Positions 3,042-30,301 of a DNA stretch of 36,291 nucleotides are shown piece after piece. Location of the stretch: UHGV virus genome UHGV-0200858, one strand, 5' to 3'. Made by a program: the position numbers and the translations under genes. The stretch's first letter is position 1, and the number at the start of each line of letters is the position of its first letter. The notes below the pieces were generated by a model. That model was not told where the DNA came from, made no database searches, and saw only the letters and a list, made by a program, of their open reading frames with translations. The DNA comes from a virus.

Positions 3042-4226
3042 TTAGGCAGCGTCTAAAGGGCTTAAATCAAGTTCTAGGTCTTCCGGTTCCAAATCAGCTA
3101 ACTGTGCATTCATCCACTTAGCTAAATCTTCATCGGTTACGACAAAATCCGGTTTTTCTTCCCATTCATTAAGATACATCGGACGATCTGGATTTGCTGC
3201 GATATATTCATTAATGAAGTTTAATGCTTTCTTGAGAGTTTTAATCGGGCGTGTTTCCGTCCATCCATCCGGTACATCATGTTTTGAGGCAGTCTTACCC
3301 TTAACATGAATCTTTAACCCTTTCTCTAAGTCGATTGCTTGCCATCCCTTTTCAAACAGATGATTGAATATCAATTCATGTTTGTATGTGGATAATTTGG
3401 CTTGTTGTTGCATTCTCTTTTTAGAGTTGGAGGCGAAACCGATTTTAATAAATTCATCTCCTAATTTCTGAATATAGAGATAAGTCGGACGTGTCTTGTC
3501 AATTCTTCTTAGATTATATTCACCTGTTTCTAATGAACGTTGGTTTGAAAGGCAATCTGGACAAATCAGGATTCCACGGTCGCAAGGTTCACGGGTAGTT
3601 AAATCCCAATCCCCATGATGCGGACAATTACAGCGCAAGAGTGTCTCTCTTACTCCCTTCTCTTCTGACAACCAACAAACGAAGGTGTATCCGAATTCTT
3701 TACACAATTCCTTAATCTGTGCTTCTCTCTTAGCTCTCAATTCAGTGAGCGTATTACATCCGTTTCTACGAGCCAGATTGCTCTCTTTGGTGCAGCATGA
3801 ACAGTTTAAATTTCTACGGAATGCCAGATTAAGAGGGATAGTGAATTCTTCGTTGTGATTCAAGCAGAGAAATTTTGCTTTGGTTCCTTTGACGTGATTG
3901 TATTCACCATCCCAACCTAAAAACTGTTTCCCTTCCTGTTTCCCTCGTTCGGTTAGCTGGATTTTATATCCTTCCTCATTCCTTTTAAGGCTTCCCCCAT
4001 TGATTTGATTTAACTGTTTCAGTGCATGAATGCTGGAAAGTCCGGTAGGTTGATATGACACCTGAAAACGGGCTTCTACTCCTGATACATACGGTAAAAC
4101 AAAACCATCGAAGGTTAATCCGTGTTTCTCACACTGTTTAATGATTCTGGCTTGCACTTCTTCCGGTGTCTTCTGGTTTGGGTGAGTCTTAACAAAAACA
4201 ATCTCGTTTGCAAATGCTAGTTTCAT
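3042..4226 (-). CDS. GIY-YIG-like (T5orf172-type) domain protein with N-terminal Cys/His zinc-ribbon-like repeats; putative homing-endonuclease-like nuclease
   Basis: C-terminal half contains YLYIQKLGDEFIKIGFASNSKKR...E motif resembling GIY-YIG/T5orf172 fold; upstream CxxC/CxC/HH clusters (LNCSCC, RCNCPHHG, CPDC); paralogous to the 4381..4950 product. Confidence 0.55.
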   Translation of the reverse strand: MKLAFANEIVFVKTHPNQKTPEEVQARIIKQCEKHGLTFDGFVLPYVSGVEARFQVSYQPTGLSSIHALKQLNQINGGSLKRNEEGYKIQLTERGKQEGKQFLGWDGEYNHVKGTKAKFLCLNHNEEFTIPLNLAFRRNLNCSCCTKESNLARRNGCNTLTELRAKREAQIKELCKEFGYTFVCWLSEEKGVRETLLRCNCPHHGDWDLTTREPCDRGILICPDCLSNQRSLETGEYNLRRIDKTRPTYLYIQKLGDEFIKIGFASNSKKRMQQQAKLSTYKHELIFNHLFEKGWQAIDLEKGLKIHVKGKTASKHDVPDGWTETRPIKTLKKALNFINEYIAANPDRPMYLNEWEEKPDFVVTDEDLAKWMNAQLADLEPEDLELDLSPLDAA

Positions 4227-4380: not shown

Positions 4381-4950
4381 ATGATTCCAGTAATGGCTAA
4401 AGATATTGTTTTTACTCCTAAATCATCCCGTGCTGTAACTCCACCAGCATTAGAACAACGCATTCTTACTCACATCAAAGATAATGACTTACCGTTAGTC
4501 TTTCATGGCTTTCTGGGTGAGTTTAAAGGGCTTCACACGAGAATTGCTCTTACATGTACTCGCTGCGGTGATAGAGCCGACAAATCAGCTACTAACCTGC
4601 TTAATGAAGGCAAACGCTGTGTATGTTTCAAGAGTGATTATTTTCAATATAAAGCGGGTGTACCATATCTCTATGTGATGCAATCCGGCGATATTGGTAA
4701 ATTTGGTGTAACAAAATCGATTATCAAACGTAGGGTTAATCTGGGCTTACGTAATCCCGGTCATAACTTTGATATTGTCTATGCTCGTGAAATGCCATCA
4801 ATGAAACATGCGCTAGCCACTGAGCGAACAATAAAGAGAATGTTGGATGTGGGTATAGGCGGGATTGAATACGGCAAAACTGAAACATTCCACTACTGCA
4901 ATAAATCACTAAACAATATAAAGAATATTGCAAGTGTGGAGTGGAACTAA
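4381..4950 (+). CDS. GIY-YIG-like (T5orf172-type) domain protein with zinc ribbon (189 aa)
   Basis: CTRCG...CVC Cys cluster followed by YLYVMQSGDIGKFGVTKS...RRVNL...E motif; stop overlaps the start of the downstream helicase gene (TAATG). Confidence 0.55.
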   Translation: MIPVMAKDIVFTPKSSRAVTPPALEQRILTHIKDNDLPLVFHGFLGEFKGLHTRIALTCTRCGDRADKSATNLLNEGKRCVCFKSDYFQYKAGVPYLYVMQSGDIGKFGVTKSIIKRRVNLGLRNPGHNFDIVYAREMPSMKHALATERTIKRMLDVGIGGIEYGKTETFHYCNKSLNNIKNIASVEWN

Positions 4951-6440
4951 TGCAAGATATTAACATTCATTTTCAAGATTACAGTTTCGTTAAGGTTGAA
5001 TGCTCTCCTTCTATCGGAATGGAATTAAGAGATTATTTCTCGTTTGAGGTTGAAGGGGCTAGATTTAGCCCCCGCTACAAATATTCCGGCTGGGATGGAA
5101 AGATAAGACTGTTTACGCATGAGAACACCTTACCAATCGGATTATTGAAAACATTGGGTATCTTCGCTAAAAACATGGGCTATAGCGTATGGGTAGACCC
5201 CAGATTGCTTGAGAAGGAAGATGTAACCAAAGAATCAATTGATTCATGGATTGACTCTTTAGAAGTGTATTCCGGTAGCAATAAAATCAATCCTTACTGG
5301 TATCAAAGAGAGGCAGTATTTCAGGGTATCCATAATCGCCGTAGAATGCTGGTTCTTCCTACCAGTGCCGGAAAGTCATTGATTGCTTGTATGCTGTCTC
5401 GTTGGTACTTAGAGAACTACACCGGAAAGATTCTAATCATTGTCCCGACTACATCGCTGGTGGTTCAAATGAGGGATGATTTTGTCGATTATAGGCTATT
5501 CCCTTATGAAGCAATCCATACAATGATGAGTGGTAGCGGGAAACATCCGGGAGACAGGTTAATCACTGTTTCAACATGGCAATCAGCTTGCAAGATGCCT
5601 CCTGAATGGTTCCGACAATATGGAATGTTGATAGTTGATGAATCGCATCGTGCCAGCGCAAAGAATATCACCAATATCATCAACGGAATGAATCATTGTC
5701 AGTTTAAAATCGGTATGACTGGTTCCCCGAAAGAATCAAAGTGCCATTTAATGCAATATGTCGGGTTGTTCGGTGATATTCAGAAGATAGTAGCAATCAA
5801 GCAATTGATGGATGACGGACAAGTTACCCAGCTTAAAATTAATGCTCTCTTCCTTAAGTACAAAGATGAAGAATGTAAAGCAATGCGGGGCAAAGATTAT
5901 CAGGAAGAGATTAAATTCATCAATGCTCATAAGGTAAGGAATAAACTGGCTTGTAATTTGGCCTTAAAACTCGCCAGGAAGCAAGAAAACGTATTTTTGA
6001 TGTTCCGGTACTCTAAGCATGGAAAAATGCTTTATAATGCGTTACAGCGCGTTTACGATAAGGTTTATTACGTTTCCAGTGAGATTACCACCGCCGAACG
6101 CGATGCCTTAAAGAAAATGGCTGAAAATGAGAAAGGATTGATTGTAGTTGCCTCCTATGGTGTTTTCTCTACTGGCGTTTCAATTAAGAATCTTCATCAT
6201 GTCATTTTCGGTCATCCAGTGAAGGAATCAACCATTGTCCGGCAATCAATAGGACGTGCTCTTAGGAAACATGGTAGTAAAGCAATTGCGTATGTGTGGG
6301 ATTTGATAGATGTGATTTGTTCGAAAGACAAGAAAGGAAAATATACACGCAAGAATTATGCTTTAACTCATGGCCTCCAGAGAATCAATACTTACATATC
6401 AGATCGCTTCGAATATGTAACGAAAACAATCGAGATTTAA
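4941..6440 (+). CDS. uvsW: SF2 DExH-box helicase, UvsW-like
   Basis: Walker A LPTSAGKS, DExH box IVDESH, motifs ILIIVPTT, VYYVSSE, IVVASYGVFSTG, QSIGRALRKHGSK; overall layout and several motifs recall T4 UvsW (from memory, not searched). Track start is GTG; likely ATG start at about 4950 overlapping upstream stop. Confidence 0.8.
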   Translation: MELMQDINIHFQDYSFVKVECSPSIGMELRDYFSFEVEGARFSPRYKYSGWDGKIRLFTHENTLPIGLLKTLGIFAKNMGYSVWVDPRLLEKEDVTKESIDSWIDSLEVYSGSNKINPYWYQREAVFQGIHNRRRMLVLPTSAGKSLIACMLSRWYLENYTGKILIIVPTTSLVVQMRDDFVDYRLFPYEAIHTMMSGSGKHPGDRLITVSTWQSACKMPPEWFRQYGMLIVDESHRASAKNITNIINGMNHCQFKIGMTGSPKESKCHLMQYVGLFGDIQKIVAIKQLMDDGQVTQLKINALFLKYKDEECKAMRGKDYQEEIKFINAHKVRNKLACNLALKLARKQENVFLMFRYSKHGKMLYNALQRVYDKVYYVSSEITTAERDALKKMAENEKGLIVVASYGVFSTGVSIKNLHHVIFGHPVKESTIVRQSIGRALRKHGSKAIAYVWDLIDVICSKDKKGKYTRKNYALTHGLQRINTYISDRFEYVTKTIEI

Positions 6441-6483
6441 TAAATAGGGGCTTTAATGCCCCTTTATTCTACGGAGATTAAAA

Positions 6484-6747
6484 ATGATTAGCTTTAAACG
6501 TTTTTTGGTTGAGGCCGCTATTGACGGTTTTATGAGTAAGATTTATTCTTGTAATACTATCGAGGGATTAAATGAACTTGAGGCATATTATGAGAAGCGC
6601 AAGAAAGAAACAGAATTGAAACCTGCTGATGATATTTCGATCCGTGATGCCATCGCCGGACGACGCAAGCAACTGGAAGCGGAGAACGAGCCGGATGAGG
6701 AGCCAGAAGAGGATTTTTCTATCATCAATTTGTGCCAGATAAAATAA
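6484..6747 (+). CDS. small acidic protein, possible UvsW.1-like helicase partner (87 aa)
   Basis: Immediately downstream of the helicase, acidic C-terminus (EAENEPDEEPEEDF); position and size recall T4 uvsW.1; followed by terminator. Confidence 0.35.
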   Translation: MISFKRFLVEAAIDGFMSKIYSCNTIEGLNELEAYYEKRKKETELKPADDISIRDAIAGRRKQLEAENEPDEEPEEDFSIINLCQIK

Positions 6748-6775
6748 AAGCGCCCATGTGAGGCGCTTTTTTGTT
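6748..6775 (+). terminator. rho-independent terminator (approx)
   Basis: AAGCGCC CATGTG AGGCGCTTTTTTG hairpin plus T-run after the 6484..6747 gene. Confidence 0.65.
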
Positions 6776-6791
6776 ATATGTGAATTGATGA

Positions 6792-7145
6792 TCAGCCATT
6801 CCATCGAGATTTTTTCGACCTGCTATCAATATGCGTAAAGGTTTTATATTTGCCTAGACCATATTGATTGGGATATTTCCCGTTAAGATAAGCATGGACA
6901 ATATCAGGAGAAACACCCTTGATCACAATGTCACACGCTCGACCGCGAACATGGTAGCTATTGGTTGCCCCGCCTACATTCTTGTTATGAGTCGGACAAC
7001 GGTTCCCACTGTTAATAATTACTGGTTTCCCGAAGTGTTCTCGTACATCCTCAAGAATTACCAGTAATTCAGCATCGATAGTATCATAATCACATTTTCC
7101 GCATTTACATTTGAATTCCTTGCGGGAAAAATGCTTACTTAACAT
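6792..7145 (-). CDS. endolysin, peptidase M15 family (L-alanyl-D-glutamate / VanY-like zinc peptidase)
   Basis: Motifs SRKEFKCKCG, SGNRCPTHNKNVGGATNSYHVRGRACDI and FTHID match the H-x6-D ... H zinc site of M15 peptidases; no signal peptide. Confidence 0.8.
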   Translation of the reverse strand: MLSKHFSRKEFKCKCGKCDYDTIDAELLVILEDVREHFGKPVIINSGNRCPTHNKNVGGATNSYHVRGRACDIVIKGVSPDIVHAYLNGKYPNQYGLGKYKTFTHIDSRSKKSRWNG

Positions 7146-7154
7146 ATTACCCCC

Positions 7155-7502
7155 TTAGATCATTTCGAAGATATAACCAATAAAGCGCATACCCTTGATA
7201 TAATAAGGAGCAGTGCCTACACACACCGCGCGTGCATCGCCCAGACAGTTAAAGCTATAAGGATTAACTACATCAACTTCTTGCCCTACACGAAAACGAT
7301 ACTTAGGACGTTTAGCCAATGTGGCGACACAAAACACGGTCCCTTTTTCATGATCGCGGATACATTCTTTATATTGTTTATGTTTAACTCTCTTTGCCTC
7401 AAAATCATGAGTCATGGATTCTGGGCTAATGCCATTAATAAAAATACCGGAAAGCTGATCGACCGGATAAGTAGGAAATTCAGTAAAAATATTTTTAGCC
7501 AT
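7155..7502 (-). CDS. hypothetical protein (115 aa)
   Basis: ORF tightly packed between endolysin and upstream gene; no recognisable motif. Confidence 0.4.
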   Translation of the reverse strand: MAKNIFTEFPTYPVDQLSGIFINGISPESMTHDFEAKRVKHKQYKECIRDHEKGTVFCVATLAKRPKYRFRVGQEVDVVNPYSFNCLGDARAVCVGTAPYYIKGMRFIGYIFEMI

Positions 7503-7541
7503 GTTATACCCCCCATAAGATTCTATGAGGGTATTTATGGA

Positions 7542-8225
7542 TTAAACGTATCTCATGCGCGATTTAATGTGCTTATTGATGTTTTTAAGCATCATTTCCT
7601 CGTTGCTTTCCCATGATCCCATTGTCGAATAACGAGTAGAAATTTTGTCCGACTTAACGGCAACAATTCGCTTACTCTGTTTCTGTGTGCGTTTCTCTAA
7701 GCGACGTTTTGCCACCGCCGATCCATTCTTAGCGCGTTTAGTTCGGGATTTCTTAGGCTTGTACTTCTTCATGATAAAAGTCCCTTCCTGGTTCTCTACC
7801 TTGATGAAGTTGCCGTTTTCGATGTTACGCATCATCTTACCGCCTTTGATGGCCTTAATGTTCCCGTGGGAGTCTAAGACCTTGCCGTTGGCGATTGGAA
7901 CTAGCTTATTGATTTTGCCCCCATCGAAATAGTGTTTCAGATAGTCGTCCTGACTGCCGATCTTCTTATCCTTATCCCTTGCGCCCTTAATGAAGATTTG
8001 GTGTCTGGTCCCTGATCGGTTCTTATAGTTGGTATTACCTACAGCTTGTTGAGTCCAGCGAGTAGGTCTATCAACATTCTTGTTAATCTTCTTCTGGAGT
8101 GCTCTGGAAGCAAAGATCGCCCCTTCCCCTAGTGCCCTTTCGAATGTATCGGTTGCCTTTTCAGACCATTGCCGTAACGCTTTCTTAGTCCTTAGAGCGT
8201 TTCGTTTATTGGTACTGGTTGCCAT
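7542..8225 (-). CDS. hypothetical highly basic protein (227 aa)
   Basis: K/R-rich throughout (KRNALRTKKALRQ, KKYKPKKSRTKRAK); start overlaps the stop of the upstream small ORF. Confidence 0.4.
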   Translation of the reverse strand: MATSTNKRNALRTKKALRQWSEKATDTFERALGEGAIFASRALQKKINKNVDRPTRWTQQAVGNTNYKNRSGTRHQIFIKGARDKDKKIGSQDDYLKHYFDGGKINKLVPIANGKVLDSHGNIKAIKGGKMMRNIENGNFIKVENQEGTFIMKKYKPKKSRTKRAKNGSAVAKRRLEKRTQKQSKRIVAVKSDKISTRYSTMGSWESNEEMMLKNINKHIKSRMRYV

Positions 8226-8226
8226 G

Positions 8227-8397
8227 TTAGCCCCCTAATAACGAAAAGACCCCCGCCAGTGTCCTTAGCAATTGTTCATCCACGGTCATAGCCGGGAGTT
8301 CAAGCCCAAAGGACGTTAGCAGAGGTCTAATAGCTACGTTATAAGTGAGGGCGACAATCAAGAGATAACCAAAATATTTCTTAAGTTTATTCTTCAT
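8227..8397 (-). CDS. possible small membrane protein (about 56 aa), candidate holin-like
   Basis: Hand-translated MKNKLKKYFGYLLIVALTYNVAIRPLLTSFGLELPAMTVDEQLLRTLAGVFSLLGG; one hydrophobic helix; stop overlaps start of 7542..8225; below track cut-off, coordinates approximate. Confidence 0.25.
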   Translation of the reverse strand: MKNKLKKYFGYLLIVALTYNVAIRPLLTSFGLELPAMTVDEQLLRTLAGVFSLLGG

Positions 8398-8417
8398 ATA
8401 TTCACCCCTTTTTATTA

Positions 8418-8696
8418 TTATTTTTGCTTGAGTAAATCAATAACTTGGTCAAATTTAGCATCCATTGCAACCACTTTCTTTTCTATACCGTGAAGGGTTT
8501 GTTCCATGCGATAAACTCTTTCGGCAATTTGATCGTGGTTATTCTGCATCGTTTCAAACTTTTGATTAAACAATGCATCATTGGATTCTAATTTAGACAA
8601 TCTATTTTCTGTGGCTAATTGATTTCGGTGGAGTCTCCAAAGCCCACCACAAATTAAGGCGATAACACCGATACCGCCATATATAATTTCAGTCAT
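8418..8696 (-). CDS. membrane-anchored coiled-coil protein (92 aa), candidate lysis/spanin-like or holin-associated
   Basis: N-terminal TM helix (IIYGGIGVIALICGGLW) followed by coiled coil; located between tail fiber gene and endolysin region. Confidence 0.4.
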   Translation of the reverse strand: MTEIIYGGIGVIALICGGLWRLHRNQLATENRLSKLESNDALFNQKFETMQNNHDQIAERVYRMEQTLHGIEKKVVAMDAKFDQVIDLLKQK

Positions 8697-8798
8697 TACG
8701 CCCCCGATATTTTATAATTTAATGGCAGAATTATTTAGATAAAAATAATCCCGCCTAACTCAAAAGAATTAAGCGGGATTAATTATTAGAATTAAATT

Positions 8799-11700
8799 TT
8801 AAGAAACAGAAATACCAGTAGCGGCTTTCTTAGTTACCATTACCGTTAGATCGCTGATATATGCACTTGGGGTATAGTTGTTAACGCCCTTACAGTAAAC
8901 TTCAAAAGTCATTGTTACTGCCCCATGTCCGGCTGGCATGTCAATAACTCCACTGTACATACAGCCAGAAGTTGCAGTGCGATCATATAGAACACCACCA
9001 TTTTTCTTAATGATTAGTCGGCAAGTATCCCAATGATCGCTACTTTCGCCACGACGAACAGACCCGTTATGATGAATCGCTGGAATCACTATTTGGCGAT
9101 CGAATGGATGATCATCTTCGACCCTTACAGTGATTGCACCATCAGGCCAGTTTGGTTGGCGATGCGGGAAACTCCTACCAACCACTTTCACGAAGTCACC
9201 ACGCACCTGATTAGCATCAAGCATACCCAAAATGCGGCAACTTGAATTAATCGTTACGTTGTTCATTTCGCCGGAATCAGCCACCAGATGACCACGAACG
9301 TTAGCGTGTCTAAAATGACAAGTGCCATCTTTGCCAATATACCATCCATCGTTACCATTCCAGTTATAAGACTGGATATAGTTACCAATTTTAGCATTAT
9401 CGATAGAGCCATCAATAATATGACCAGTTCCGATCTGTGCGTGCTGGATGTGAGCGCCGTTAATCTGGGCTGTTCCGATCTTAGCCGTGGTAATAGCCGC
9501 ATCGTTAATCTGGGCTGTACCGATCGCCGCATTACGAATCATCGCATTATCGAGATAAACCTTGTTACCTTCGATACCAAACGGGCAAACTTCCGATCCG
9601 TCTTGTGGAGCTACCGCGATTTTATCAGCCGTAAAGATGATTCTCGTCGGTTCTGCCGGATCATTGGTTGCGCTCATGTGAATACCAGCCACACGACCAT
9701 CTGCATTAACTGCCAGATTATATTTGCTGTTAATGGTTCCCTTCAAAGCATCGATCTTAACGTCCGCTTCTTGGTTAACACCAGCAATCTTGCCATCCAT
9801 TTCTACCCGAACTTGATCAATCTTACTTGCGCTTGCTGCCTCACTGGTAGCAATTGCTTGTTTCAGCGTAGTAGCAGATGCGCTAACTTCCGACGTAATA
9901 TCGCCTTTCAGTTCAGCTTTAACCTGATCAATCTTAGTAGAGCTTGCTTGCTCACTGGTAGCAATCAGACTCTTGAGAGTATCGGCTGAGGCTTGGACCG
10001 TCTGTCCTGTCTCGGTAGTAATCTGTTTATGCATTGCATCAATCTTAGCATCGGCATTAGCGCCAGCTTGAGCAATAGCATCAGCGATAGTTTCATCTAA
10101 GCGATCTTGTAAACCAATCAGGTCTTCCAGTGCTTCTTTGTCCTGATCGTCCCAGCTAATCGTAGACTTCATCGGCATGAAATAAGGTTCAGACCAAACA
10201 GCATCATCCATCCCGAAAATATCGTAATGTGCCGCACGAAGATAATAATCACCATCAGCCAAATCAAAGGAAGTATGGCTAACGCTGTTAGTAGTCACCG
10301 CCCTTGCATCAGAGAAAGTATTGTCGGTTGCATACTGGATGATTGACCCTGCATAGTCATGTTCTACGTCATTAGCCCAGCTAACAAACGCAGTATTAAA
10401 GCCACCACGCGCACTAAATCCTTTCATTGGCTTATGTTGTGGGTTAATAGCCACTAAACGCGCTGGGGCGCTTACAGAGTTGTTATAACCTTTAGCGGAT
10501 ACTTCTACCGTCAATTCACGGGAAAGGCCGTTAAACTGGTTCATATCAAGCGTATACGTCCACGATTCAGGATCGCGGGTACGGTACTGAATAGACTTAC
10601 CAGCCTTGTTAGTTACCTTGATAATGTAGGCTTCAAACAGGTCACTAAACTTGTTAGTTTCACCGTTGATAACCACATCTAAGGATTGCTGATTGTCCCA
10701 TTCAATAATCAGATCATTGCCTTCGAAAGTACCAGGTGTGCTACCCTGATTTTTGATGCGAATCACTGGAGTAGGCAGTTCATAGGTAACTTCTGGATTC
10801 TGGTTAACCAGTTCTACCCAATCAGAACGGGCGATGATACCGAAAGCACACACGCGGTAATCGTAGGAACGATCTTTTGCCAGTGCATTGATATTGAAAA
10901 TTTGCTGTGAAGTCTGTCCCAGCTTAATCCAGTTAGGTGATCCACTCACTTTGTAATCAATCTGGAAGCCGTAACGGTTGAAGTCTTCCGGTGCATCCCA
11001 TGTCAAAGTAACGTTTTTACCGTGGATTGTCTCACCAGTTGCCTTAATTCTGAAATTAGTCGGTTTCTGTACTGTCATTGAATCCGGTAAACCAGTTGGT
11101 CTATTGTCTGGATTCGCCGCATAGTTCAGGTCAGTATAAACCTGAGAATTATATTCTGTGGCGGTGATAGTCATCATCCCAGCAATGCCAGAATCAATCG
11201 AGCGATCAATTGCAGTAATACGCCATAAGGAATTATTCAGCTTCAATTCATCATAGGTTACGCTGATAACATCCCAAACTTCGGCAGTGAATGCGTCAGT
11301 AGTCATAAAGCTGATAACCTGAGTGATACGAGATTTATTTCGCTCAATGCTCGCGAGTTTATCAATCTGATCTTTAGACTTAACGAAACGATATTCTACA
11401 TCCTTAGCAATAATTCGACCATCTGCGCGAACAGTAGCATCGTTTTCAGCATCAGCCGGATAACGTAGCATTTGCTCTGAATAGTCAATTGATGGTTCTT
11501 GATACATCGCGTTAATGGTATTGAAATAACCGTTAGTGCCACCTGTTTTCAGTGATACCTTACCCATCATGATATTGTCTTCATTGAAGGTATGCTTAAC
11601 AATATCAGGAGCATCCAGTTTCAGCGTAATACGTCCAAAGGATTCGAACATCACCCCGCCGAAAGTCTGCATAAGATTAGTCAAGTTCTCTTTAAAGCTG

Positions 11701-12545
11701 GCGTTCGGATCACATGCACCGTTTGAATGTAGATCCATCTGGCGTACTTGTTTACGTACTTTCAGGAATGAATCAACGTTAATGTTTTCAATTGGTACGG
11801 ATAAGCCATATTTTTCATTTGTTAGGTAGTGGAAAATCTGATCCACGCCGTTAGTGCTAGCCTCAATAGCATTGGTTTCAAGGTTACGGATTTTAAGGCC
11901 GCAAACGTCTACTGCTACCTGGCTATTTGGCTGGAGAATATCAACACCAGCAGCAAGAGATTTGTCATCACGACGTAACACAATACACATGGTCGCAATG
12001 CCGTTACCCTTGAAAGCGTCGGTCCAGTCTGAGCCTAAATGACGTTTTGCCAGCGACAAAGCGGTGTTAGGATTCTTGCCCGTGCGGAACTCGACTTCTA
12101 ATACTTTACGATATTCTTCTTTAATGTTGCCCTTATCGAGAATACCATCACGGATCGTCATGTTCTTACCAACAAGAACATTTTTATTATCAATAAAGAG
12201 TGCTTTGTAATGGTCGATTTCACCCTCGGCTACAGAGAAGATTTGCACTAGCTTATTGTTTTCTTGCTTAGAAACTGCTTTGTAAACACAGTTTGTGCCA
12301 GTGCGGGTAGTACCGAAAACGACTGGTATCACCGCTTTCGGATCGTTTGATGTTCCTAGTGTCACCGCATTATCTGGGCTTTGTACTTTAGGTGTTTTTG
12401 GTGCGCCTACAGTGGAAGCGATCAAAGTCATTGCACCAGCAGCCATACCGATAGCGACTGCGGTCATAACAGAAAATGTTGCAGCAGCAGCCATCCCAGC
12501 AGACGCACCAGCAATAACCGCGCCTACCAATATTTCAAATCCCAT
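8799..12545 (-). CDS. central tail fiber / host specificity protein (J-like), 1248 aa
   Basis: Size, position at distal end of tail module after NlpC/P60 K-like gene, Ala/Gly-rich hydrophobic N-terminus, fibronectin-III-like repeats in the middle (by composition), divergent C-terminal receptor-binding region. Confidence 0.7.
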   Translation of the reverse strand: MGFEILVGAVIAGASAGMAAAATFSVMTAVAIGMAAGAMTLIASTVGAPKTPKVQSPDNAVTLGTSNDPKAVIPVVFGTTRTGTNCVYKAVSKQENNKLVQIFSVAEGEIDHYKALFIDNKNVLVGKNMTIRDGILDKGNIKEEYRKVLEVEFRTGKNPNTALSLAKRHLGSDWTDAFKGNGIATMCIVLRRDDKSLAAGVDILQPNSQVAVDVCGLKIRNLETNAIEASTNGVDQIFHYLTNEKYGLSVPIENINVDSFLKVRKQVRQMDLHSNGACDPNASFKENLTNLMQTFGGVMFESFGRITLKLDAPDIVKHTFNEDNIMMGKVSLKTGGTNGYFNTINAMYQEPSIDYSEQMLRYPADAENDATVRADGRIIAKDVEYRFVKSKDQIDKLASIERNKSRITQVISFMTTDAFTAEVWDVISVTYDELKLNNSLWRITAIDRSIDSGIAGMMTITATEYNSQVYTDLNYAANPDNRPTGLPDSMTVQKPTNFRIKATGETIHGKNVTLTWDAPEDFNRYGFQIDYKVSGSPNWIKLGQTSQQIFNINALAKDRSYDYRVCAFGIIARSDWVELVNQNPEVTYELPTPVIRIKNQGSTPGTFEGNDLIIEWDNQQSLDVVINGETNKFSDLFEAYIIKVTNKAGKSIQYRTRDPESWTYTLDMNQFNGLSRELTVEVSAKGYNNSVSAPARLVAINPQHKPMKGFSARGGFNTAFVSWANDVEHDYAGSIIQYATDNTFSDARAVTTNSVSHTSFDLADGDYYLRAAHYDIFGMDDAVWSEPYFMPMKSTISWDDQDKEALEDLIGLQDRLDETIADAIAQAGANADAKIDAMHKQITTETGQTVQASADTLKSLIATSEQASSTKIDQVKAELKGDITSEVSASATTLKQAIATSEAASASKIDQVRVEMDGKIAGVNQEADVKIDALKGTINSKYNLAVNADGRVAGIHMSATNDPAEPTRIIFTADKIAVAPQDGSEVCPFGIEGNKVYLDNAMIRNAAIGTAQINDAAITTAKIGTAQINGAHIQHAQIGTGHIIDGSIDNAKIGNYIQSYNWNGNDGWYIGKDGTCHFRHANVRGHLVADSGEMNNVTINSSCRILGMLDANQVRGDFVKVVGRSFPHRQPNWPDGAITVRVEDDHPFDRQIVIPAIHHNGSVRRGESSDHWDTCRLIIKKNGGVLYDRTATSGCMYSGVIDMPAGHGAVTMTFEVYCKGVNNYTPSAYISDLTVMVTKKAATGISVS

Positions 12546-17475: not shown

Positions 17476-17946
17476 TTAGACTTTCTGGAAAACAGCTTGT
17501 TTAACCGGAGCACCATCTACTACAAAGGTGAAGGTACGGCCTACTACAGCATCCTCACCACCAGTCATGGTAGTTTTAGACAGGAAGCCGTTATAAGCGA
17601 TGTGCACACCAGATTTTTTCGTAGCATCGATGTAGTAAGCAATTTTAAGCTGTACGCGCTTACCGTCTTCGGTTGCTTTAATCAGTTTTTCGTGTACTTC
17701 GTTACCCGGCATGTAGTTGATCGAAAGTTCGATATCCGGTACAGACATACGACCAACCAGCTTACGGTTATAAGCACCAGAGAAGTTAGGAACATCGATA
17801 GTAGAACGTTCTACACCAGTTTCCGGGAACGCTGCGCATTCTGGAATTTCCAGATAAGTTTCAGCGTCAAGATCAACGTTAGCTACATCTTCTTGCAGAA
17901 ACAGACCAACGAGGCCACCAGAGAAAATATCAAATTTAGTAGTCAT
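17476..17946 (-). CDS. major tail tube protein (156 aa)
   Basis: Position directly upstream of G/T chaperones and tape measure; strong SD; followed by strong terminator; codon usage typical of a highly expressed structural gene. Confidence 0.6.
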   Translation of the reverse strand: MTTKFDIFSGGLVGLFLQEDVANVDLDAETYLEIPECAAFPETGVERSTIDVPNFSGAYNRKLVGRMSVPDIELSINYMPGNEVHEKLIKATEDGKRVQLKIAYYIDATKKSGVHIAYNGFLSKTTMTGGEDAVVGRTFTFVVDGAPVKQAVFQKV

Positions 17947-18034: not shown

Positions 18035-21000
18035 TCATTTACAGGATTTAATAGCCGCAAGTTCAGCTTTAACAGCTTTCAACTCTTCGTTCATCGCATC
18101 ATACTTAGTCGTTAATTCCTGAAAGGCTTTCACGAAAAGAGCATTGATACTAGAAACAGAAATAGTTTTAATTTCTCCTGGATTTTCGGTATCTCCATCG
18201 CTGCAAACGTGCACAGCTTCCGGCATAACTTTTTCCACATCTTGAGCAATGACACCTAATTCGCGTCCAACCACTGTATCATCAGAAAGTGATTTAACTT
18301 TATCGTAGGAATATACGGTTAAGCTGTTTAATTTATCCAGCGCACCTTCTTCCAATTCTTCCTTGTTGATCTTAAGACGTTCATCAGATCGAATATGCAC
18401 ATCGTTAAAGCTACCGTTACCCGGCGTGTAAAAGAACCCATCGTGATGGAACTCAAATACAGCTTGAGGGTGTCCGTTATCAGGTGAGTTTTCCGCAGAT
18501 CCAACACGAATAATTGCTTGTCCCCAATTGTTAGGGATACGACGCATACCAAAATCGACGGCAGTTGTATACCCTTGATTGGTGATTAAACTTCTTGCTT
18601 TAACAATCGGATAATAACAGTCTTGTCCAACATAGCCATGATCGACGAATATTGGCGCTTCCACTCGCCACTGATTACCCCAATCACCTGGTTGACTAGC
18701 GGTCCAACGTTCACCATGAACATATAATCGAGCGTTATTAACATGAACCATTTCGACGCCTTTTGGACTTAATGCAATATCCCCAGCGTTCGTAAGATTT
18801 ATCGCGGCATTAGTAGCATAGCTATAGAACGCTAATCCATTATCACCACCGCCTTTACCAATATACCAGTTGTTGTTGTCAGCACACGTACCCAACAAAT
18901 ATACAGACGAATCACCACTTTCGGCATTCATGATAATTGCATCAGATCCGCGATTAATTTTAAGTTTACCAAAGAAGGAGTTTTTAATGGTATTATCACC
19001 CAATCGTTCAAATTCTGCGAAAAATCCTTTTGAGTCACGAAGACTTAAAACGTTATTTCGACCTGTATTGCTTGCCCCCCAATGGACGAGTTCCATATAG
19101 TCCATAGATTGACGAGAACCAGCTTTAAAGAAAAGATTGTCCTCAAGACGAGTGCTACCATCAATCCCCAGATGTAAACACCGAGCGGTTTCAGTACCAC
19201 CTAAATATAATCCACCGTCCGCAAAATCATAGCTGAATGGTCTGCGATTATTCCAACTACCAAAAGAATCTTTTAAATCGGTAGTAAGAATATGGAAGCT
19301 AGAACCATCATTGCGTAACATCAAACCATAGTTACCGCCTTTGACAGCCAAACGAGCATTTTCAGACAATGCGACTTCGCTATTCATTACAATTTTCTGG
19401 CCTTTACCACCAGTAATATGTAATTCACCATCTTCAATCAGGTTTATCGAGTTTTGACCGTTATCGTTCCACCAAATAAAATCTTTGGTCTGCGCATCAC
19501 CGAAGCCAAACCAACCATTACGAACATCTGTACCAGTTCGATAATCAAAGAAGTTTAAGTGGCATGATTCGTTTGGACCACGACGAAAATCAATTGCTGA
19601 GTTTCCACCTAAACCGCCATCAATGGTCATTCTACGAATATGCAAACCGGACGATGCCGAAAGCAATAATTGTTGGTTAACATCTTCATAACCAGTTGCA
19701 AGGCGATATGACTGATCATCAACAGTTTCATGCCAGATTGTAGCTGGTGCAGAACTACGGAAGCGACGCAACATTTTCTTAGCATTTGTTTGTTGTTCGT
19801 TCAAATGCTCAATGTCATATTGGCCTTGATGGTTTCCGCCAAAATTTAACGTCCCACGGTTGCTAAAGTTATTAAACGATGAAATGTTAAGAGCATCAAA
19901 AATTTCATCTGCAACAGGTTTTTCACCGCCCAGGTATTCAGGAGTATCCAACAGGTTTAAAGAAACACCACCGGAAGAAACTTGATATTCTGCTAAAACA
20001 AATCCTGTATGTGCACCATAGTAAGCGTAAAGATCGTAATTATCACCATCGGTAGGAATTGCGCAAAAATATTGTTCGTAATACCAAATGCTATAATAAG
20101 CATTGAATACAACACCTTTCGGGCTATTGTTGCCGCAACGGATCACCAGTTCAATAACATTGGCTTGTCCATTCTGTCCGACGTTATAACCGTTACCACC
20201 CACTAAACGGATCTTAGCCGTACGACCGTGTTGTTGTGGCATTGTCAAAGTGCCTAGTTTAAACCAACCGCCCTCGACCCCAAAATTAAGCGTCTTCTGG
20301 AAAAGTCGGTCAATTTCTGCTTTCGAATATGCGCCAATTTCGGCAGGAGTAGGTTTATCACCCTCGTGATACATGCGGTGAGAATATGCCAAATGACCCA
20401 ATTCATCATAGCCGTATGTTCTTACAGTAGCATGTGGATTAGACCCATAAGTGAACTCGAAGCCACGAGCATGATTAACACCGGATGGATGTGGAACATG
20501 CAAGATCATAGCAATATGATCAGCTAGATCATTGGTACGGAATGCACCAAAGTAATCAAGATTACGCGCACTTGGATCATCAAAATAGTTTGCGGTCTTA
20601 GACAGCAAATAACCATCAGTGTAAGTGTTTACGTGTTTTTTGATGTACTTACCGTCACTCGATCCGTCGGCTGCATCAATACGGCTTTCTAAGCGCGCCA
20701 GTTCAGAATCAGTGTAAGACTTGTTATTGTCAACTTTGCTATGAATTGCCGTATTTTTGGCTTCAACATCACGGGTTAATGCTGCGACGTTATCCGCTGC
20801 CTCTTGCTTATTGGCTGCAATCACACCAGTAAGGTTATTGTAAGTGTCGGTTAATTGATTTTCCGCATAAGTTTTATTATCAGCGATAGTGCGATCAGTC
20901 TCGGCCTTAATCAAATCAACTTTGTCATTGATTGCTTTGTCATTGATTGCGATGGTTGCATCAGTACGGGATTTAATATCATCAACTTTTTTATTGATGC

Positions 21001-21463
21001 GGGTGTCCAGTTCCTGAGTTGCTACAGCAGCCGCATTTTTATTAGCGGTGATGGTATCGGATAATTCAGATTTAACACCAGCCAGTTCGGAAGCTGCTTT
21101 ATTTTTATTGGCTTCGATTGTCGCGTCGGTTTCGCGTTTAATTACATCAACTTTATTGTTAATTTCTGCGTGGTTGTTGGCAATAGTAGAATCGGTAGTT
21201 TGTTTAATTTCATCTACTTTAGCGTGAATATTGCGGTCGTTTACTGCAATTGTGCTATCTAATTCTTGTTTGTTAGCATCAACTTTAGATTCTAGTGCCG
21301 CGTGAGTTTCAGGAGAAACAGAGATTTGAACTACTTCATGATCTCGGTCTTTGGTGAAAATAACATGGTCTTTAAGGTTGATTGCTACCTCACCGACCTG
21401 TAATTGTTCCGGCGTTGGTTTTTTGCCAGAAACACTAGTTCGTTTAAATTGGATTGATTGCAT
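18035..21463 (-). CDS. side (L-shaped-type) tail fiber with C-terminal S74-family intramolecular chaperone domain (1142 aa)
   Basis: N-terminal tail-fiber anchor-like motif (KKPTPEQLQVGEVAIN), tandem about 22 aa repeats (xVDxIKxxTDxTIAxN), C-terminal SDERLKINKEE ... LGVIAQDVEKVMPEAV motif characteristic of self-cleaving intramolecular chaperone domains of endosialidases and T5 pb1. Confidence 0.75.
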   Translation of the reverse strand: MQSIQFKRTSVSGKKPTPEQLQVGEVAINLKDHVIFTKDRDHEVVQISVSPETHAALESKVDANKQELDSTIAVNDRNIHAKVDEIKQTTDSTIANNHAEINNKVDVIKRETDATIEANKNKAASELAGVKSELSDTITANKNAAAVATQELDTRINKKVDDIKSRTDATIAINDKAINDKVDLIKAETDRTIADNKTYAENQLTDTYNNLTGVIAANKQEAADNVAALTRDVEAKNTAIHSKVDNNKSYTDSELARLESRIDAADGSSDGKYIKKHVNTYTDGYLLSKTANYFDDPSARNLDYFGAFRTNDLADHIAMILHVPHPSGVNHARGFEFTYGSNPHATVRTYGYDELGHLAYSHRMYHEGDKPTPAEIGAYSKAEIDRLFQKTLNFGVEGGWFKLGTLTMPQQHGRTAKIRLVGGNGYNVGQNGQANVIELVIRCGNNSPKGVVFNAYYSIWYYEQYFCAIPTDGDNYDLYAYYGAHTGFVLAEYQVSSGGVSLNLLDTPEYLGGEKPVADEIFDALNISSFNNFSNRGTLNFGGNHQGQYDIEHLNEQQTNAKKMLRRFRSSAPATIWHETVDDQSYRLATGYEDVNQQLLLSASSGLHIRRMTIDGGLGGNSAIDFRRGPNESCHLNFFDYRTGTDVRNGWFGFGDAQTKDFIWWNDNGQNSINLIEDGELHITGGKGQKIVMNSEVALSENARLAVKGGNYGLMLRNDGSSFHILTTDLKDSFGSWNNRRPFSYDFADGGLYLGGTETARCLHLGIDGSTRLEDNLFFKAGSRQSMDYMELVHWGASNTGRNNVLSLRDSKGFFAEFERLGDNTIKNSFFGKLKINRGSDAIIMNAESGDSSVYLLGTCADNNNWYIGKGGGDNGLAFYSYATNAAINLTNAGDIALSPKGVEMVHVNNARLYVHGERWTASQPGDWGNQWRVEAPIFVDHGYVGQDCYYPIVKARSLITNQGYTTAVDFGMRRIPNNWGQAIIRVGSAENSPDNGHPQAVFEFHHDGFFYTPGNGSFNDVHIRSDERLKINKEELEEGALDKLNSLTVYSYDKVKSLSDDTVVGRELGVIAQDVEKVMPEAVHVCSDGDTENPGEIKTISVSSINALFVKAFQELTTKYDAMNEELKAVKAELAAIKSCK
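20684..21301 (-). repeat. in-frame tandem coding repeats in the tail fiber N-terminal shaft (approx)
   Basis: Protein shows 8 or more consecutive repeats of the pattern N-K-x-x-x-D-x-x-I-x-x-K-V-D-x-I-K-x-x-T-D-x-T-I; corresponding DNA shows repeated GCGATGGT / GTTGATTTG-type units. Confidence 0.6.
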
Positions 21464-21536: not shown

Positions 21537-22370
21537 TTAATATTCACCGAAGTCGATCCGGTCATGGATAGAAACGGCTTCAATCTCGGCTGGTGTCGGT
21601 TTTTCTTCTGTGGAATACACTTTCACCCATCCCGAATTACCGTCTTTCTGGACTGTGCGAACTCGTAAACGTGGTGCGCCGGAAGCGGTGCAAGTTAATT
21701 GCCATCCACCATCTTCATTAGGTTGAACGTGAATTAGTGAAGTATCAGCACTAAATGGATTAGATGCGCTCGATCCCTGATAAGTTACGAAACGGTTTCC
21801 GGCTAATGCTTCGCTATCAATCGGACCTGTGAATGGATGTACACCAGCACCCAAACCAAAATCACCTTGACGTAAGATCCGGCCTTCGGTGGCAATACCA
21901 CGGTCGAGAATCCCACCATCAGGATCTAATTTAAATTCGATGGTAGTAACTTTGTTATCGCTACCACGGGTTTTGTGTGATGTGACGTATGCATCAAAAA
22001 TGACGTAGTATCCTGTGTTAGCAGCACTGTAACCAGAGTTCACAACATAGAACATACGGAAGCGTAAAGGAGTTTTATCATTCACCGCTTTCATCAACAT
22101 GTCTTGATGTTCATCATCCAGAACACGGTTTAACGTGAGTGTCGTCGGTTCCAGTTTACGATAACCAGCAAGTTTCCCCGTAGCGTCCTGATCATACTCT
22201 TCTAACGTCTGGATCTCTGTGGATTCGGTGATCGTAGGGAATGCTGCGATGTTCTCGATAGGACTAAATGCAGGATCGAAAAAGTCCGGCTGGTTATCCA
22301 CCATAGTAGACACGGAGACTTCAACATGCGACCCCGTGAAAATGTCTAAGTTATCTTGTGTAATATTCAT
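21537..22370 (-). CDS. virion structural protein (277 aa), fiber- or neck-associated
   Basis: Located between head-completion genes and tail fiber; shares a KPTPAEI(E/G)A motif with the tail fiber; Gly-rich beta-like composition. Confidence 0.4.
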   Translation of the reverse strand: MNITQDNLDIFTGSHVEVSVSTMVDNQPDFFDPAFSPIENIAAFPTITESTEIQTLEEYDQDATGKLAGYRKLEPTTLTLNRVLDDEHQDMLMKAVNDKTPLRFRMFYVVNSGYSAANTGYYVIFDAYVTSHKTRGSDNKVTTIEFKLDPDGGILDRGIATEGRILRQGDFGLGAGVHPFTGPIDSEALAGNRFVTYQGSSASNPFSADTSLIHVQPNEDGGWQLTCTASGAPRLRVRTVQKDGNSGWVKVYSTEEKPTPAEIEAVSIHDRIDFGEY

Positions 22371-27364: not shown

Positions 27365-29269
27365 TTAGAACGATGTTACCCAGCTACGGCCTCTATTTGG
27401 GCGTCTGGCGATGTTTTTACGTTGTGGTCGTGTGATTGGCTTATTTTCTTCGATTTGCTCGTCAGATTGCGATTTAGGAGCTTTTACGGGTTCTTCGACA
27501 ACACGGTTTAAGCTGTCTTTCATTGCGATGAGTTTATCCCATGACATTTTTGAAAGGACGTAGCGAGAAGCCGCTGTAGCATACACGGCGCAGTCGAGCG
27601 CCTCGTTCCTAACGCCTGGGTTCTTTACCCATCTCACGCCAGTAGTAGTACGCTTGACAGATTCACTTAAAAGCTGATCGAGATAATCATCAGGAACGGT
27701 GTCTGATATTTCTAAGCCAATATGAGGATTATCTTTCAGGTTCCTAGCCAACATTTCACGAAATGCAGTTTTACCCACATTAACACCCAACATAAGCAAT
27801 TCATGACCACCTGTGCGGGTAGGTTTAACCGGAATGATCGGAGCGTTACCAGCAGAACTACCTTTGATAGCGTGTAAGTTCTTCCACTTGCCGCAAATAC
27901 GGTATCCAGCTTGAGTGAATCGACCGTTCGATGTATCAAGGAAGCTGGCGAGCATAGGAACACGATCACCCGATACAGTAGTAAATCTGGTTTTATGGAA
28001 GTTGATTAATCTATCCCATACAGGGGATTCATATCGTTCACAGTTATGATCGTAAAAGCTGCGGTGATCCAGAATATAAATCTTATCCTTTGCCACGCCC
28101 ATGATTGTAGTTTCTGCGCGATCTAATTGCTGGTCAGTACCCGCACACAAGAAAATCACGTCATCAGGGATATTCTCGATAGAAACATCTGTTTTGAGTT
28201 GTTCCAGTTCATTTGCTTCTACTGCCGTGTCCTGATCGTCGTATACCTTGCCTAACACGGTGTTATAAAATGATTGTAAATCAAAGGATTGCCACGCATG
28301 ACTAAAATCAACCACACAAGCGCGGATCGTGCTGAAAGGTGAATACAGACGGCTGATCCAGAATCCTGCTACTTCACTTTCACGGGTTGCTCTCCACTCG
28401 CCTTGTGCTACTGCCCTGATCCGCTCTCCTTCTGTCCATGCGTTCTTACAGTGGGGGCAAATATAACGAGCGGTATCAGGATCGGGTAAGTTCTTACCAT
28501 CGATGTTACGCCATTCAAATTGAACGTTTTCCCACTCGATCACCTGGTGTCTACCGCAATGAGGACACGGAACAAAAAACATACGCATATCGCTTGATAA
28601 CCATTGCTGGTTAATGCTTCCCAGCTTACTGGTCGGGGTACTGGATACGACTAATCGACCTTCATCGCCAAAGGTAGTTAAACGGTTAGCAGCCAGTGCC
28701 ACCGGATCACCTTCTTCTGAGGCTGTAGCAGCATCGATTTCGTCAAGCAATCCAACCTTTGCGGTCTTACCACGTAGGGTTGATGGACTGGTAAGCGATA
28801 CCATGTACAGGAAGTGATTCGTTTTTAGCTGTAGCTGGTTATTGTTGTTAACCGCATTGCGATCATTCTTGTCTGTAACCACGTCTTTTAATGCATCACA
28901 TGCTTCGATAGACGGTCGGATCTTACCAGCGAGATATTGAGACATTTCTTTAGCGGTTGATTGTCCGATAATCATATTGCATGGATCGTTAGCCATCTGG
29001 TTAAACAGGATGCCGTTCAGGATGGTAGTCTTTCCGATCTGCGCACTGGTCATCAGAACATACTTTTTCTTGTTCTCAAGGAAAGGAGCATCAATCATGC
29101 CTTTCTGGAATGACAGCAATTTAACTTTATCCCCAGCTTGAGGACCATCTACCAGCACCATATTCGCTTCGCACCATTCCGATGGAAGGAGTTTAGGCGG
29201 TGGCGTAATATATTTTGCGGCATTTCTAAGAATTCTTTTTAGTTTTGTTTTGTTCGAAATTAGTTTCAT
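27365..29269 (-). CDS. terL: terminase large subunit (634 aa)
   Basis: Size, position upstream of portal, N-terminal ATPase-like region (Walker A-like MTSAQIGKT, Walker B-like VGLLDEID) and C-terminal nuclease-like region with conserved acidic residues. Confidence 0.8.
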
Positions 29270-29356
29270 TCAAATACCCTCATTACGAAATATGAAGGTA
29301 TTTATTAAATTGTTGATATTTTGATAAATATGGGTATTAAGATTTAAGGGGGGTGT

Positions 29357-29959: not shown

Positions 29960-29961
29960 TA

Positions 29962-30219
29962 TTGAGAATTCACTATTGTTTGGAGGAAACTACTATGACT
30001 ACTAAAGCTACTCGCGGACGTCCTTGCCGTTTTGATCGTGAACAACTGGCAGCGATTGTAAAAGCGTACTATCAAGCACCGAAAGGTAAAGCCGAAAAAG
30101 AACAAGTATTGAGCGAACACGGTATTTCAATCGCTCAATTCTACAAATCACTCCATAAAGTTGATTTGAAATTCTTTGTTCAGGTTGACGGTGAAATGGT
30201 AGAAGCAACAGGAATTTGA
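29962..30219 (+). CDS. small HTH-like DNA-binding protein (paralog family)
   Basis: RGRPCRFDREQLAAIVKAYY ... GISIAQFYKSLHKV pattern; likely true start at internal ATG about 29995 preceded by GGAGGA; followed by terminator. Confidence 0.45.
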   Translation: MRIHYCLEETTMTTKATRGRPCRFDREQLAAIVKAYYQAPKGKAEKEQVLSEHGISIAQFYKSLHKVDLKFFVQVDGEMVEATGI

Positions 30220-30226
30220 TTCTCTA

Positions 30227-30254: not shown

Positions 30255-30264
30255 ATACCTACAG

Positions 30265-30293: not shown

Positions 30294-30301
30294 AAAAATT
30301 A

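Follow-up and report, generated by a model that had tools for sequence, protein, structure and literature searches.

How does an endolysin reach the cell wall when no holin can be recognised beside it? The question is raised by the viral genome UHGV-0200858, a stretch of 36,291 nucleotides (nt) that was analysed as a whole and is called the window below. Positions 6792-8696 of the window hold a five-gene cassette in which four genes (p92, p56, p227 and p115) precede a gene for an M15-family peptidase (M15). The cassette is present in 55 of 5,426 complete Escherichia coli genomes (~1%), where all four genes upstream of M15 carry the PGAP name 'hypothetical protein'. A first-pass annotation had read the segment as a lysis module and had put forward its two small membrane proteins as candidate holins. 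Our analysis favours, with a probability of about 0.5, a reading in which M15 is the endolysin, p56 with p92 as a partner or regulator gives the holin function, and p227 and p115, set between these genes, serve in virion assembly. Rather than lacking a holin, the phage probably encodes one of an unusual type.

The five-gene unit and its endolysin

The unit and its borders are laid out as follows (aa, amino acids; TMD, transmembrane domain):

8746-8781, minus strand: terminator-like hairpin with a 16-bp stem and a T-run, between the J-like gene and p92
8418-8696, minus strand: p92, 92 aa, single TMD and coiled coil; candidate holin partner or regulator
8227-8397, minus strand: p56, 56 aa, one TMD; best holin candidate
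7542-8225, minus strand: p227, 227 aa, very basic and soluble; phrog_1924 'minor tail protein'
7155-7502, minus strand: p115, 115 aa, conserved, soluble and beta-rich; always after p227
6792-7145, minus strand: M15A peptidase (Peptidase_M15_3), 117 aa; predicted cytoplasmic endolysin
6746-6770, both directions: bidirectional intrinsic terminator at the end of the late operon and of the convergent uvsW/uvsW.1 unit

All open reading frames (ORFs) of the segment were found where the first-pass annotation had placed them, on the minus strand and in the order p92, p56, p227, p115, M15. The intergenic gaps are 1-40 nt long, and a GGGGG ribosome site lies ahead of each of the five genes. The p56/p227 junction reads GGGGGC-TAA-C-ATG, the last codons of p56 forming the ribosome site of p227, and the same TAA-n-ATG layout is seen in Providencia, which upholds the proposed coupling of a single-TMD protein to the basic 227-aa protein. 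Hairpins like that at 8746-8781 also follow the capsid, tail-tube and other late genes, a Providencia relative has one in the same position between its J gene and p92, and no convincing sigma-70-like promoter was found upstream of p92 on the minus strand. Given these similar late hairpins and the missing p92 promoter, we place the five genes at the far end of the late transcript and do not regard them as a separate moron; the hairpin at 8746-8781 probably lets late transcription pass. Purifying selection acts on all five genes: the nonsynonymous difference (pN) was far below the synonymous one (pS) in comparisons with three diverged relatives, and dN/dS was 0.09-0.21 where synonymous sites were unsaturated, with p92 at 0.09. 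The lowest pN of the five belonged to p56, save in the comparison with a divergent E. coli lineage, where p92 was marginally lower. A 34-aa hydrophobic ORF embedded at 7412-7516 was set aside as spurious, since it is unconserved.

The identity of the last gene is assigned by homology. M15 matched the Pfam model PF08291 (Peptidase_M15_3) with 94.7 bits (cut-off 23.2; E 4.5e-27) over profile positions 1-108 of 108, and phrog_894 'endolysin' at 2.5e-44. Its zinc ligands, read from the sequence as an H-x6-D...H triad, are H65, D72 and H105, and its alignment to the Zn D-Ala-D-Ala carboxypeptidase 1LBU spans the SxHxxGxAxD metal-binding motif. Over its full length M15 is ~60% identical to endolysins of SP6/K1E-like, Klebsiella, Pectobacterium and Proteus podophages. 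LysPM1, a 116-aa protein of the same type, is an experimentally verified Zn-dependent endolysin with the triad H63/D70/H104 (PMC13461873). This identity, together with LysPM1, points to muralytic activity of M15 and a role in lysis from within, and when window ORFs were scanned against PHROGs, M15 alone matched a peptidoglycan hydrolase. Because its N-terminus (MLSKHFSRKEFKCKCGKCDYD) is highly charged and a hydropathy scan found no hydrophobic segment, M15 has neither a signal nor a signal-arrest-release (SAR) sequence. The charged N-terminus thus predicts a cytoplasmic enzyme that needs a holin, as the first-pass annotation had argued. In one relative (locus L006, 11123-12160) a 345-aa gene with a faint DUF723 match is inserted between p115 and M15, so the cassette tolerates insertion at that junction.

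The membrane proteins p56 and p92

No window ORF matched a holin family in Pfam, PHROGs or NCBIfam, which bears out the earlier remark that an obvious holin is missing, and p56 and p92 are indeed the sole membrane proteins of the operon. Membrane topologies were derived from Kyte-Doolittle windows and flanking charges. p56 carries four lysines in its first seven residues (a +4 N-terminus), a single hydrophobic segment at about residues 9-27, and a tail of 25-30 residues with acidic residues and an amphipathic end; on these grounds it is predicted to be N-in/C-out. Outside this prophage group no homologue of p56 was found in a collection of 5.8 billion proteins.

Among 50,697 phage records the only tblastn match to p56, at 96% coverage, was the annotated holin of Listeria phage LP-P111, a clear member of Phage_holin_1 (PF04531, 4.5e-25). 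The two proteins are collinear over 54 residues with one gap (residues 6-58 of the 87-aa member) and have in common a basic N-terminus, TMD1, an FG-x-x-(I/L)-P loop and VF-LLG at the start of TMD2; the part of the family that p56 represents is limited to TMD1, the loop and one half of TMD2. The p56 family aligned to the LP-P111 holin with 92% probability in hhalign. A Phage_holin_1 profile was then built from 56 distinct holin sequences extracted from 80 related loci that had been fetched, and against it the p56 family reached 91% probability, with P 1.2e-6 and a score of 35.4. Control scores were lower: 200 column shuffles gave a mean of 11.5 (standard deviation 2.65, maximum 23.3) and the reversed alignment gave 13.9. 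Scores of 8-12 were obtained for p92, for the SP6 holin, for gp04 of Rhodobacter phage RcCronus, and for other small membrane proteins of the prophage group that are described below (p94, the two alternative ORFs of its slot, p113 and p81). The highest of the other membrane proteins was a 47-aa BigMira protein (17.5). A hidden Markov model (HMM) of the 56 holins ranked p56 first of 305 window ORFs (E 3e-4; next ORF 0.28), and with the reciprocal p56 HMM Phage_holin_1 members ranked above 1,192 decoy ORFs, followed by a 57-aa ORF of Escherichia phage DCP80. Both p56 and this DCP80 protein matched phrog_2024 weakly. At the level of profiles, p56 is a probable remote, C-terminally truncated relative of Phage_holin_1, not a member of the family, and it may form the membrane lesions that release the endolysin.

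p92 begins with a Gly-rich hydrophobic segment at about residues 1-23 (YGGIGVIALICGGLW), rich in Gly pairs, with an acidic N-tip of three residues before the TMD and a basic juxtamembrane stretch, RLHRN, after it. A coiled coil of ~70 aa follows, with one clear heptad register in which 15 of 20 a/d positions are hydrophobic, against at most 9 in the other registers; the earlier description of p92 as a TMD plus coiled coil thus holds. The N-tips are acidic and free of basic residues in four lineages, namely MTE in E. coli and Salmonella (E3 in p92 of the window), MVID (D4) in Providencia and MEVMS (E2) in a 153-aa analogue of DCP80, and two or three basic residues directly after the TMD are kept in all four. 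The acidic N-tip and the basic post-TMD residues therefore predict an N-out/C-in protein with a cytoplasmic coiled coil. Matches of p92 to PHROGs were weak only: phrog_12015 at 3.3e-4, phrog_1625 (labelled 'involved in bacteriocin production or immunity') at 0.0066 and phrog_739 'Rz-like spanin' at 0.043; Pfam gave none. These features make p92 a candidate co-holin or timing regulator.

Put together, positions 6746-8781 of the window would be the distal late operon of a ~37-kb temperate siphophage integrated in ycdX, with a small cytoplasmic Zn-dependent M15A peptidase encoded by its last gene as the endolysin. This enzyme would reach the cell wall via a membrane lesion made by p56 and p92. 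p56, with its N-terminus inside, one TMD and a short periplasmic amphipathic tail, would descend from the two-TMD Phage_holin_1 type, and p92, with its N-terminus outside, a Gly-zipper TMD and a cytoplasmic coiled coil, would serve as co-holin or timing regulator. p227 and p115 would be virion proteins (tail completion or neck) encoded between the holin pair and the endolysin, and the prophage would encode no spanin.

Interleaved genes, relatives and rival explanations

The two genes between p56 and M15 point to virion assembly. p227 matched phrog_1924 'minor tail protein' at E 6.8e-4 over nearly its full length, as did 10 of 15 members of its family (best 2.4e-33), and one of the 15 matched phrog_27 'tail completion or Neck1'. 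The family is rare: searched exhaustively by profile, 1.84 billion proteins yielded 12 representative clusters; in the 5.8-billion-protein collection, homologues of p227 and p115 were found only in this prophage group. A p227 family member matched gp44 'minor tail protein' of RcCronus, and the family aligned to gp44 with 96.6% probability in hhalign. RcCronus has a similar structural module in which gp44 is the last gene before the terminase small subunit (TerS) gene, with a SAR endolysin and a two-TMD protein after the terminase large subunit (TerL) gene; in the paper that describes RcCronus, the gp44 annotation is not backed by experiment. A hydropathy scan found no TMD in p227, its structure model (predicted local distance difference test 42.6) was too poor for use, and sequence searches of the PDB with p227 and p115 gave no match. 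Homology of p227 to lambda gpZ, and of p115 to gpU or RcCronus gp20, was rejected (hhalign at most 0.2% each). Between TerL and the tail tube the late operon has only three small connector-type genes (164, 96 and 142 aa), which suggests that p227, and perhaps p115, supply tail-completion or neck functions. p227 is probably a virion or tail-completion protein, and both p227 and p115 are most likely virion proteins of the tail-completion or neck type and not lysis proteins. With p227 assigned to a 'minor tail protein' family, the first-pass label 'lysis module' is not fully right: the unit is the far end of the late structural operon and does not consist of lysis genes alone.

The gene order J/p92/p56/p227/p115/M15 is strictly kept in the divergent E. 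coli lineage, which uses another attachment site, and in Salmonella and Providencia. It had been called atypical, which is true against lambda, whereas within this phage lineage it is conserved. Among isolated phages the only close relative of the J-like protein was that of Escherichia phage DCP80, whose record (PQ671644; locus L067, 1-50000) looks chimeric: the first ~26 kb are prophage-like siphophage and the rest is T4-like (motA, ndd, denB), rIIA occurs twice in inverted orientation (38143-40377 and 43541-45775), and the record is classified as Straboviridae. Only the first 26 kb were therefore used for comparison. After J, DCP80 encodes the unannotated 153-aa protein, in which a Gly-rich TMD at the N-terminus precedes a long coiled coil, then an endonuclease VII insert, the unannotated 57-aa membrane protein, homologues of p227 (tblastn 3e-16) and p115 (4e-7), a secreted moron on the other strand, an endolysin of the T4-lysozyme type that is non-orthologous to M15, and a TerS-like gene. 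Judged by this synteny, the four upstream genes travel together beside J and an endolysin of swapped type, and the arrangement suggests an ancestral order ending in p115/endolysin/TerS. Because endolysin and TerS are adjacent in DCP80, they were probably neighbours before the integrase/cargo module inserted.

As the window holds a near-complete prophage, it could also be checked whether a canonical holin lies elsewhere in the genome. In a hydropathy scan of all ORFs, the plausible small membrane proteins were p92, p56, p94 and a left-end pair, p113 and p81. Two features at the right end are needed here:

35731-36291, minus strand: TerS, matching phrog_57 at 6.8e-16; right end, directly upstream of p94
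35318-35602, minus strand: p94, 94 aa, three hydrophobic segments, just after TerS; rival holin candidate

p94 has an uncharged N-tip, a charged loop 1 (KLSTNEKER) and a basic C-terminus (KRTK); its topology, derived from hydropathy and charge, appears class-I-like, and its middle hydrophobic segment of 35 residues could be a hairpin. The idea of a canonical holin elsewhere thus finds a candidate by topology, but not by homology, since p94 matched no holin family, and neither the libraries nor isolated phages yielded a homologue. Homologues of p94 were present in 8 of 23 IMG/VR relatives and absent from the other 15. In the five of those 15 that were read (L044, L045, L051, L057 and L061) the slot downstream of TerS (35143-35730) holds two unrelated tiny hydrophobic ORFs, one of 56-59 aa ('...PPLTFFLFEDLPMVEFLIYLAVGLTIVYSLAHIGISAV...') and one of 57 aa ('MDLFVYFATLLFLTIVAG...CCKSDTK'). 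L061 has an additional 396-aa ORF in this slot on the opposite strand. Hairpins lie on either side of p94 (35663-35681 and 35143-35158), and since the TerS-p94 interval showed no sigma-70-like promoter, p94 is probably co-transcribed late. It has a single plausible ATG start. Between sub-lineages p94 is ~54% identical while cassette DNA is 95% identical, and in the same genome pair pN was 0.07 for TerS and 0.29 for p94.

No spanin emerged from the window. A regular-expression scan from every start codon in six frames of the 36-kb window gave no credible lipobox ORF, whether embedded, overlapping or separate, and hence no o-spanin and no unimolecular spanin; a 32-aa ORF within p92 (8483-8581) has neither signal sequence nor lipobox. 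p92 was rejected as i-spanin, as its charges predict a cytoplasmic coiled coil and the window has no lipoprotein ORF. The left-end proteins p113 (605-946, TMD and coiled coil, phrog_739 at 3.7e-4) and p81 (978-1223, secreted, with a signal peptide that lacks a lipobox) were rejected as spanins too, since they are variable cargo, which relatives either lack or have replaced. By these scans no spanin is encoded, whether p56/p92 or p94 is the holin. The p113 and p81 genes have a common 55-nt 5' repeat (597-651 and 970-1024, 73% identity) that covers the ribosome site and the signal/TMD region.

Several observations weigh against p56 and p92 as the holin. The tblastn match to LP-P111 has E = 7 and is not significant alone, and the PF04531 model itself matched neither p56, nor its Providencia and E. 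coli variants, nor the 57-aa DCP80 protein, even at E 10; this DCP80 equivalent, taken alone, scored 10.7 against the holin profile, which is no match. The family was selected post hoc, after the LP-P111 match, so that P 1.2e-6 corresponds to E of about 0.03-0.05 over the full family library. p56 ends in mid-TMD2 (...AGVFSLLGG), lacking the remainder of that segment as well as the charged cytoplasmic tail typical of holins, and its conservation is unusually high for a holin. p92 aligned to Bacillus subtilis BhlA with an hhalign probability of 0.9%, in a weak test. Two non-membrane genes, one of a tail family, separate the candidates from the endolysin, and the linkage between them could be morphogenetic rather than lytic. 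Finally, p94, with its more canonical holin topology, lies elsewhere in the prophage. That p94, or a small membrane protein of the same slot in sister prophages, is the holin and p56/p92 have another role is the main rival reading, though we consider it rather unlikely. Its size and topology speak for it, as does the mosaic slot, in which replacement of this kind is common for holins, and the probable late co-transcription with TerS. SP6-like phages, which have the nearest endolysins, keep their holin beside the terminase genes and away from the endolysin; RcCronus has its SAR endolysin and two-TMD protein next to TerL; and in DCP80 endolysin and TerS are adjacent. On the other hand, p94 resembles neither holin families nor isolated-phage proteins and scored at background against the Phage_holin_1 profile (11.2). 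In the prophage map it lies 28 kb from M15, its position between hairpins is moron-like, and it has no dual-start motif, the upstream TTG lacking a ribosome site. The two alternative slot ORFs are only putatively coding, and variable small membrane proteins of prophages are equally typical of superinfection exclusion or toxin genes.

It is less probable still that p92 and p56 take no part in lysis and are inner-membrane proteins that act together with the tail tip and with p227 and p115, for instance in membrane-associated tail completion or in superinfection exclusion late in infection, the holin then being p94 or another protein. They always stand between the J-like gene and a gene of a 'minor tail protein' family, to which p56 is coupled, and membrane or exclusion genes such as lom, cor and llp often follow tail-tip genes. 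In DCP80 the linkage to p227 and p115 persists although the endolysin is of another type and a moron has come in between, p56 exceeds the endolysin in conservation, and phrog_2024 and phrog_12015, matched by p56 and p92, are families without assigned function. Yet p56 resembles a bona fide holin family in a specific and reciprocal way, a search ahead of p92 revealed no promoter for expression in the lysogen, and the PADLOC defence models gave no match to the cassette. The RcCronus homologue of p227 has no membrane-protein neighbours, and p227 therefore does not need them. A virion-associated role for M15, as a wall hydrolase used at infection in a defective prophage whose real lysis genes are missing, is highly improbable. 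M15 does stand at the end of a tail operon, in a unit with a tail-protein-family gene, and the window has no recognised holin or spanin. Nevertheless, M15 is a single domain of 117 aa whose full-length identity is to endolysins of SP6-like and Proteus podophages (PMC13461873), and it has no structural domain for virion attachment; DCP80 has an endolysin of the T4-lysozyme type in its position, no other window ORF scanned against PHROGs matched a peptidoglycan hydrolase, and the prophage family is intact and under selection in the 55 complete E. coli genomes.

Prophage context and known lysis systems

Positions 1-36291 amount to approximately the whole of a ~37-kb prophage whose site is E. coli ycdX (locus L008, 1080-38480). 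In the complete genome NZ_CP069522, ycdX is cut into two pseudogene halves by an element of ~37 kb, and E. coli contigs that encode a p227 of identical sequence have this gene block bordered by ycdY, ycdZ and csgG. PHROG scans of all sizeable window ORFs revealed a siphophage late operon on the minus strand that encodes TerL, a head-tail joining protein, the portal, a protease-capsid fusion, chaperones, two tail-tube-like proteins on either side of a 1142-aa fibre, the tape measure, a distal tail protein, a DUF2163 hub protein, a DUF6950 protein and the J-like tip protein. No repressor or replication genes were recognisable in library scans of the window ORFs. Further features are:

8799-12545, minus strand: J-like tail-tip protein, 1248 aa
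4941-6747, left end, convergent with the late operon: uvsW and uvsW.1, T-even-like cargo
1274-2968, left end: large serine recombinase

In the region 27365-36291, TerL and TerS lie ~6 kb apart, the space between them being filled by early or regulatory genes, among them a Rha/Ant-like regulator at 30302-31219. Divergent near-consensus sigma-70 promoters were found at 31659-31631 (minus strand) and 33073-33101 (plus strand). Two genes match phrog_158 (major tail protein), at 21537-22370 (277 aa) and 17476-17946 (156 aa), with the fibre gene between them. The side fibre (gene 18035-21463) matches phrog_1699 at 4.8e-115, and its C-terminal half (18287-19942) is 84-86% identical in nucleotide sequence to gp37, the distal subunit of the long tail fibre, of Krischvirus phages. 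The 3' end of uvsW together with uvsW.1 has 96% nt identity to RB49-like Krischvirus (T-even) phages, densest at 6400-6718, which suggests a recent exchange with virulent T-even phages; the fibre segment, judged from its identity, is a second block common to the prophage and T-even phages, a putative receptor-binding module. The same cargo slot, from endolysin to integrase, holds UvsY and a gp25-type 'Phage-tail_1' fragment in relatives. Adjoining uvsW in the cargo region, the divergent genes 3042-4226 (minus strand, 5.6e-40) and 4381-4950 (plus strand, 7.4e-19) match the C-terminal part of phrog_681 'endonuclease'; the pair has faint CapR matches in relatives and no PADLOC match. The T4 late-promoter core TATAAATA occurs 6 times in the window against 2.4 expected, a count that 5 of 100 shuffles reached, so the mild enrichment may be chance. 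Its positions (567, 31223, 32214, 33172, 33372 and 33735) fall mostly in AT-rich regions near early or cargo genes, and none was found upstream of the five-gene cassette.

Holins are very diverse and often overlooked by annotation. If p56 and p92 function as proposed, a Gram-positive holin lineage would extend into enterobacteria, and p56 would offer a minimal one-TMD derivative of class II holins for mechanistic study; the prophage would also be a case of lysis without a recognisable spanin. A stronger version of this reading is a two-component holin whose two single-pass subunits lie in opposite orientations, whose gene is translationally coupled to one of tail-completion type, and which works without a spanin in an enterobacterial temperate phage; we hold this version to be unlikely. 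If true, it would be a new holin architecture for Gram-negative hosts, with a possible link between virion completion and the timing of lysis. Should p94 be the holin, the finding would be an ordinary one. In practice the gain is modest: a prophage family that occurs in ~1% of complete E. coli genomes, and also in Salmonella and Providencia, would be annotated better.

How do the candidates compare with known lysis proteins? p92 resembles the Rz/Rz1 spanins in its N-terminal TMD, its coiled coil and the sub-threshold match to phrog_739. In contrast, the i-spanin of Rz/Rz1 is N-in/C-out with a periplasmic coiled coil, whereas p92 is predicted to have the opposite orientation and is without periplasmic cysteines. 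p94 is like the class I holins (lambda S105, P2 Y and P22 gp13) in size, in its three hydrophobic segments, in its predicted N-out/C-in topology and in its short, basic C-terminus, but differs from them in having no holin-family similarity, no dual-start motif and no adjacent endolysin. In SP6-like phages the holin (gp39, phrog_920) is encoded directly upstream of TerS and apart from the endolysin, which parallels the TerS-p94 arrangement, although the SP6 holin is unlike p56, p92 and p94. SP6-like phages also encode an o-spanin-like lipoprotein (locus L015, 3199-3384, lipobox LITSGC), whereas the prophage has none.

The first-pass annotation had held that neither small membrane protein fits the canonical holin classes well. 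This is right for the E. coli-centred classes I-III; beyond them, p56 is probably Phage_holin_1-like and p92 has a layout like that of the BhlA/TpeE and Gordonia phage proteins. Phage_holin_1 comprises phiLC3-type holins of Listeria, Lactococcus, Streptococcus and Staphylococcus phages, while the host of p56 is Gram-negative. As with these holins, the operon of p56 also encodes an endolysin, farther downstream. It differs from them in having one TMD where the family has two (N-in/C-in), in lacking the charged C-terminal tail, and in the two unrelated genes that stand between it and the endolysin. BhlA/TpeE/UviB and the actinophage one-TM families are, to our knowledge, not known from enterobacterial phages. 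Bacillus prophages carry paired holin-like genes, XhlA/XhlB and BhlA/BhlB. The BhlA/TpeE holins (TCDB 1.E.27) are N-out/C-in single-pass proteins with a charged cytoplasmic helix (PMC9527704). Passages of a study of Gordonia phages describe one-TM holin-like proteins with the same N-out/C-in orientation and a cytoplasmic domain of 52-115 aa, whose genes form a linear array with other cassette genes and are reported in pairs; the same passages state that the C-terminal coiled coil of the D29 holin gp11 controls oligomerisation and timing (PMC9671378). With its tiny negative N-tip, its single N-terminal TMD, its predicted charged cytoplasmic helix and its position next to a second holin-like gene, p92 resembles the BhlA/TpeE/UviB and actinophage types, and it differs from BhlA/TpeE in being longer and in having a true heptad coiled coil of ~70 aa.

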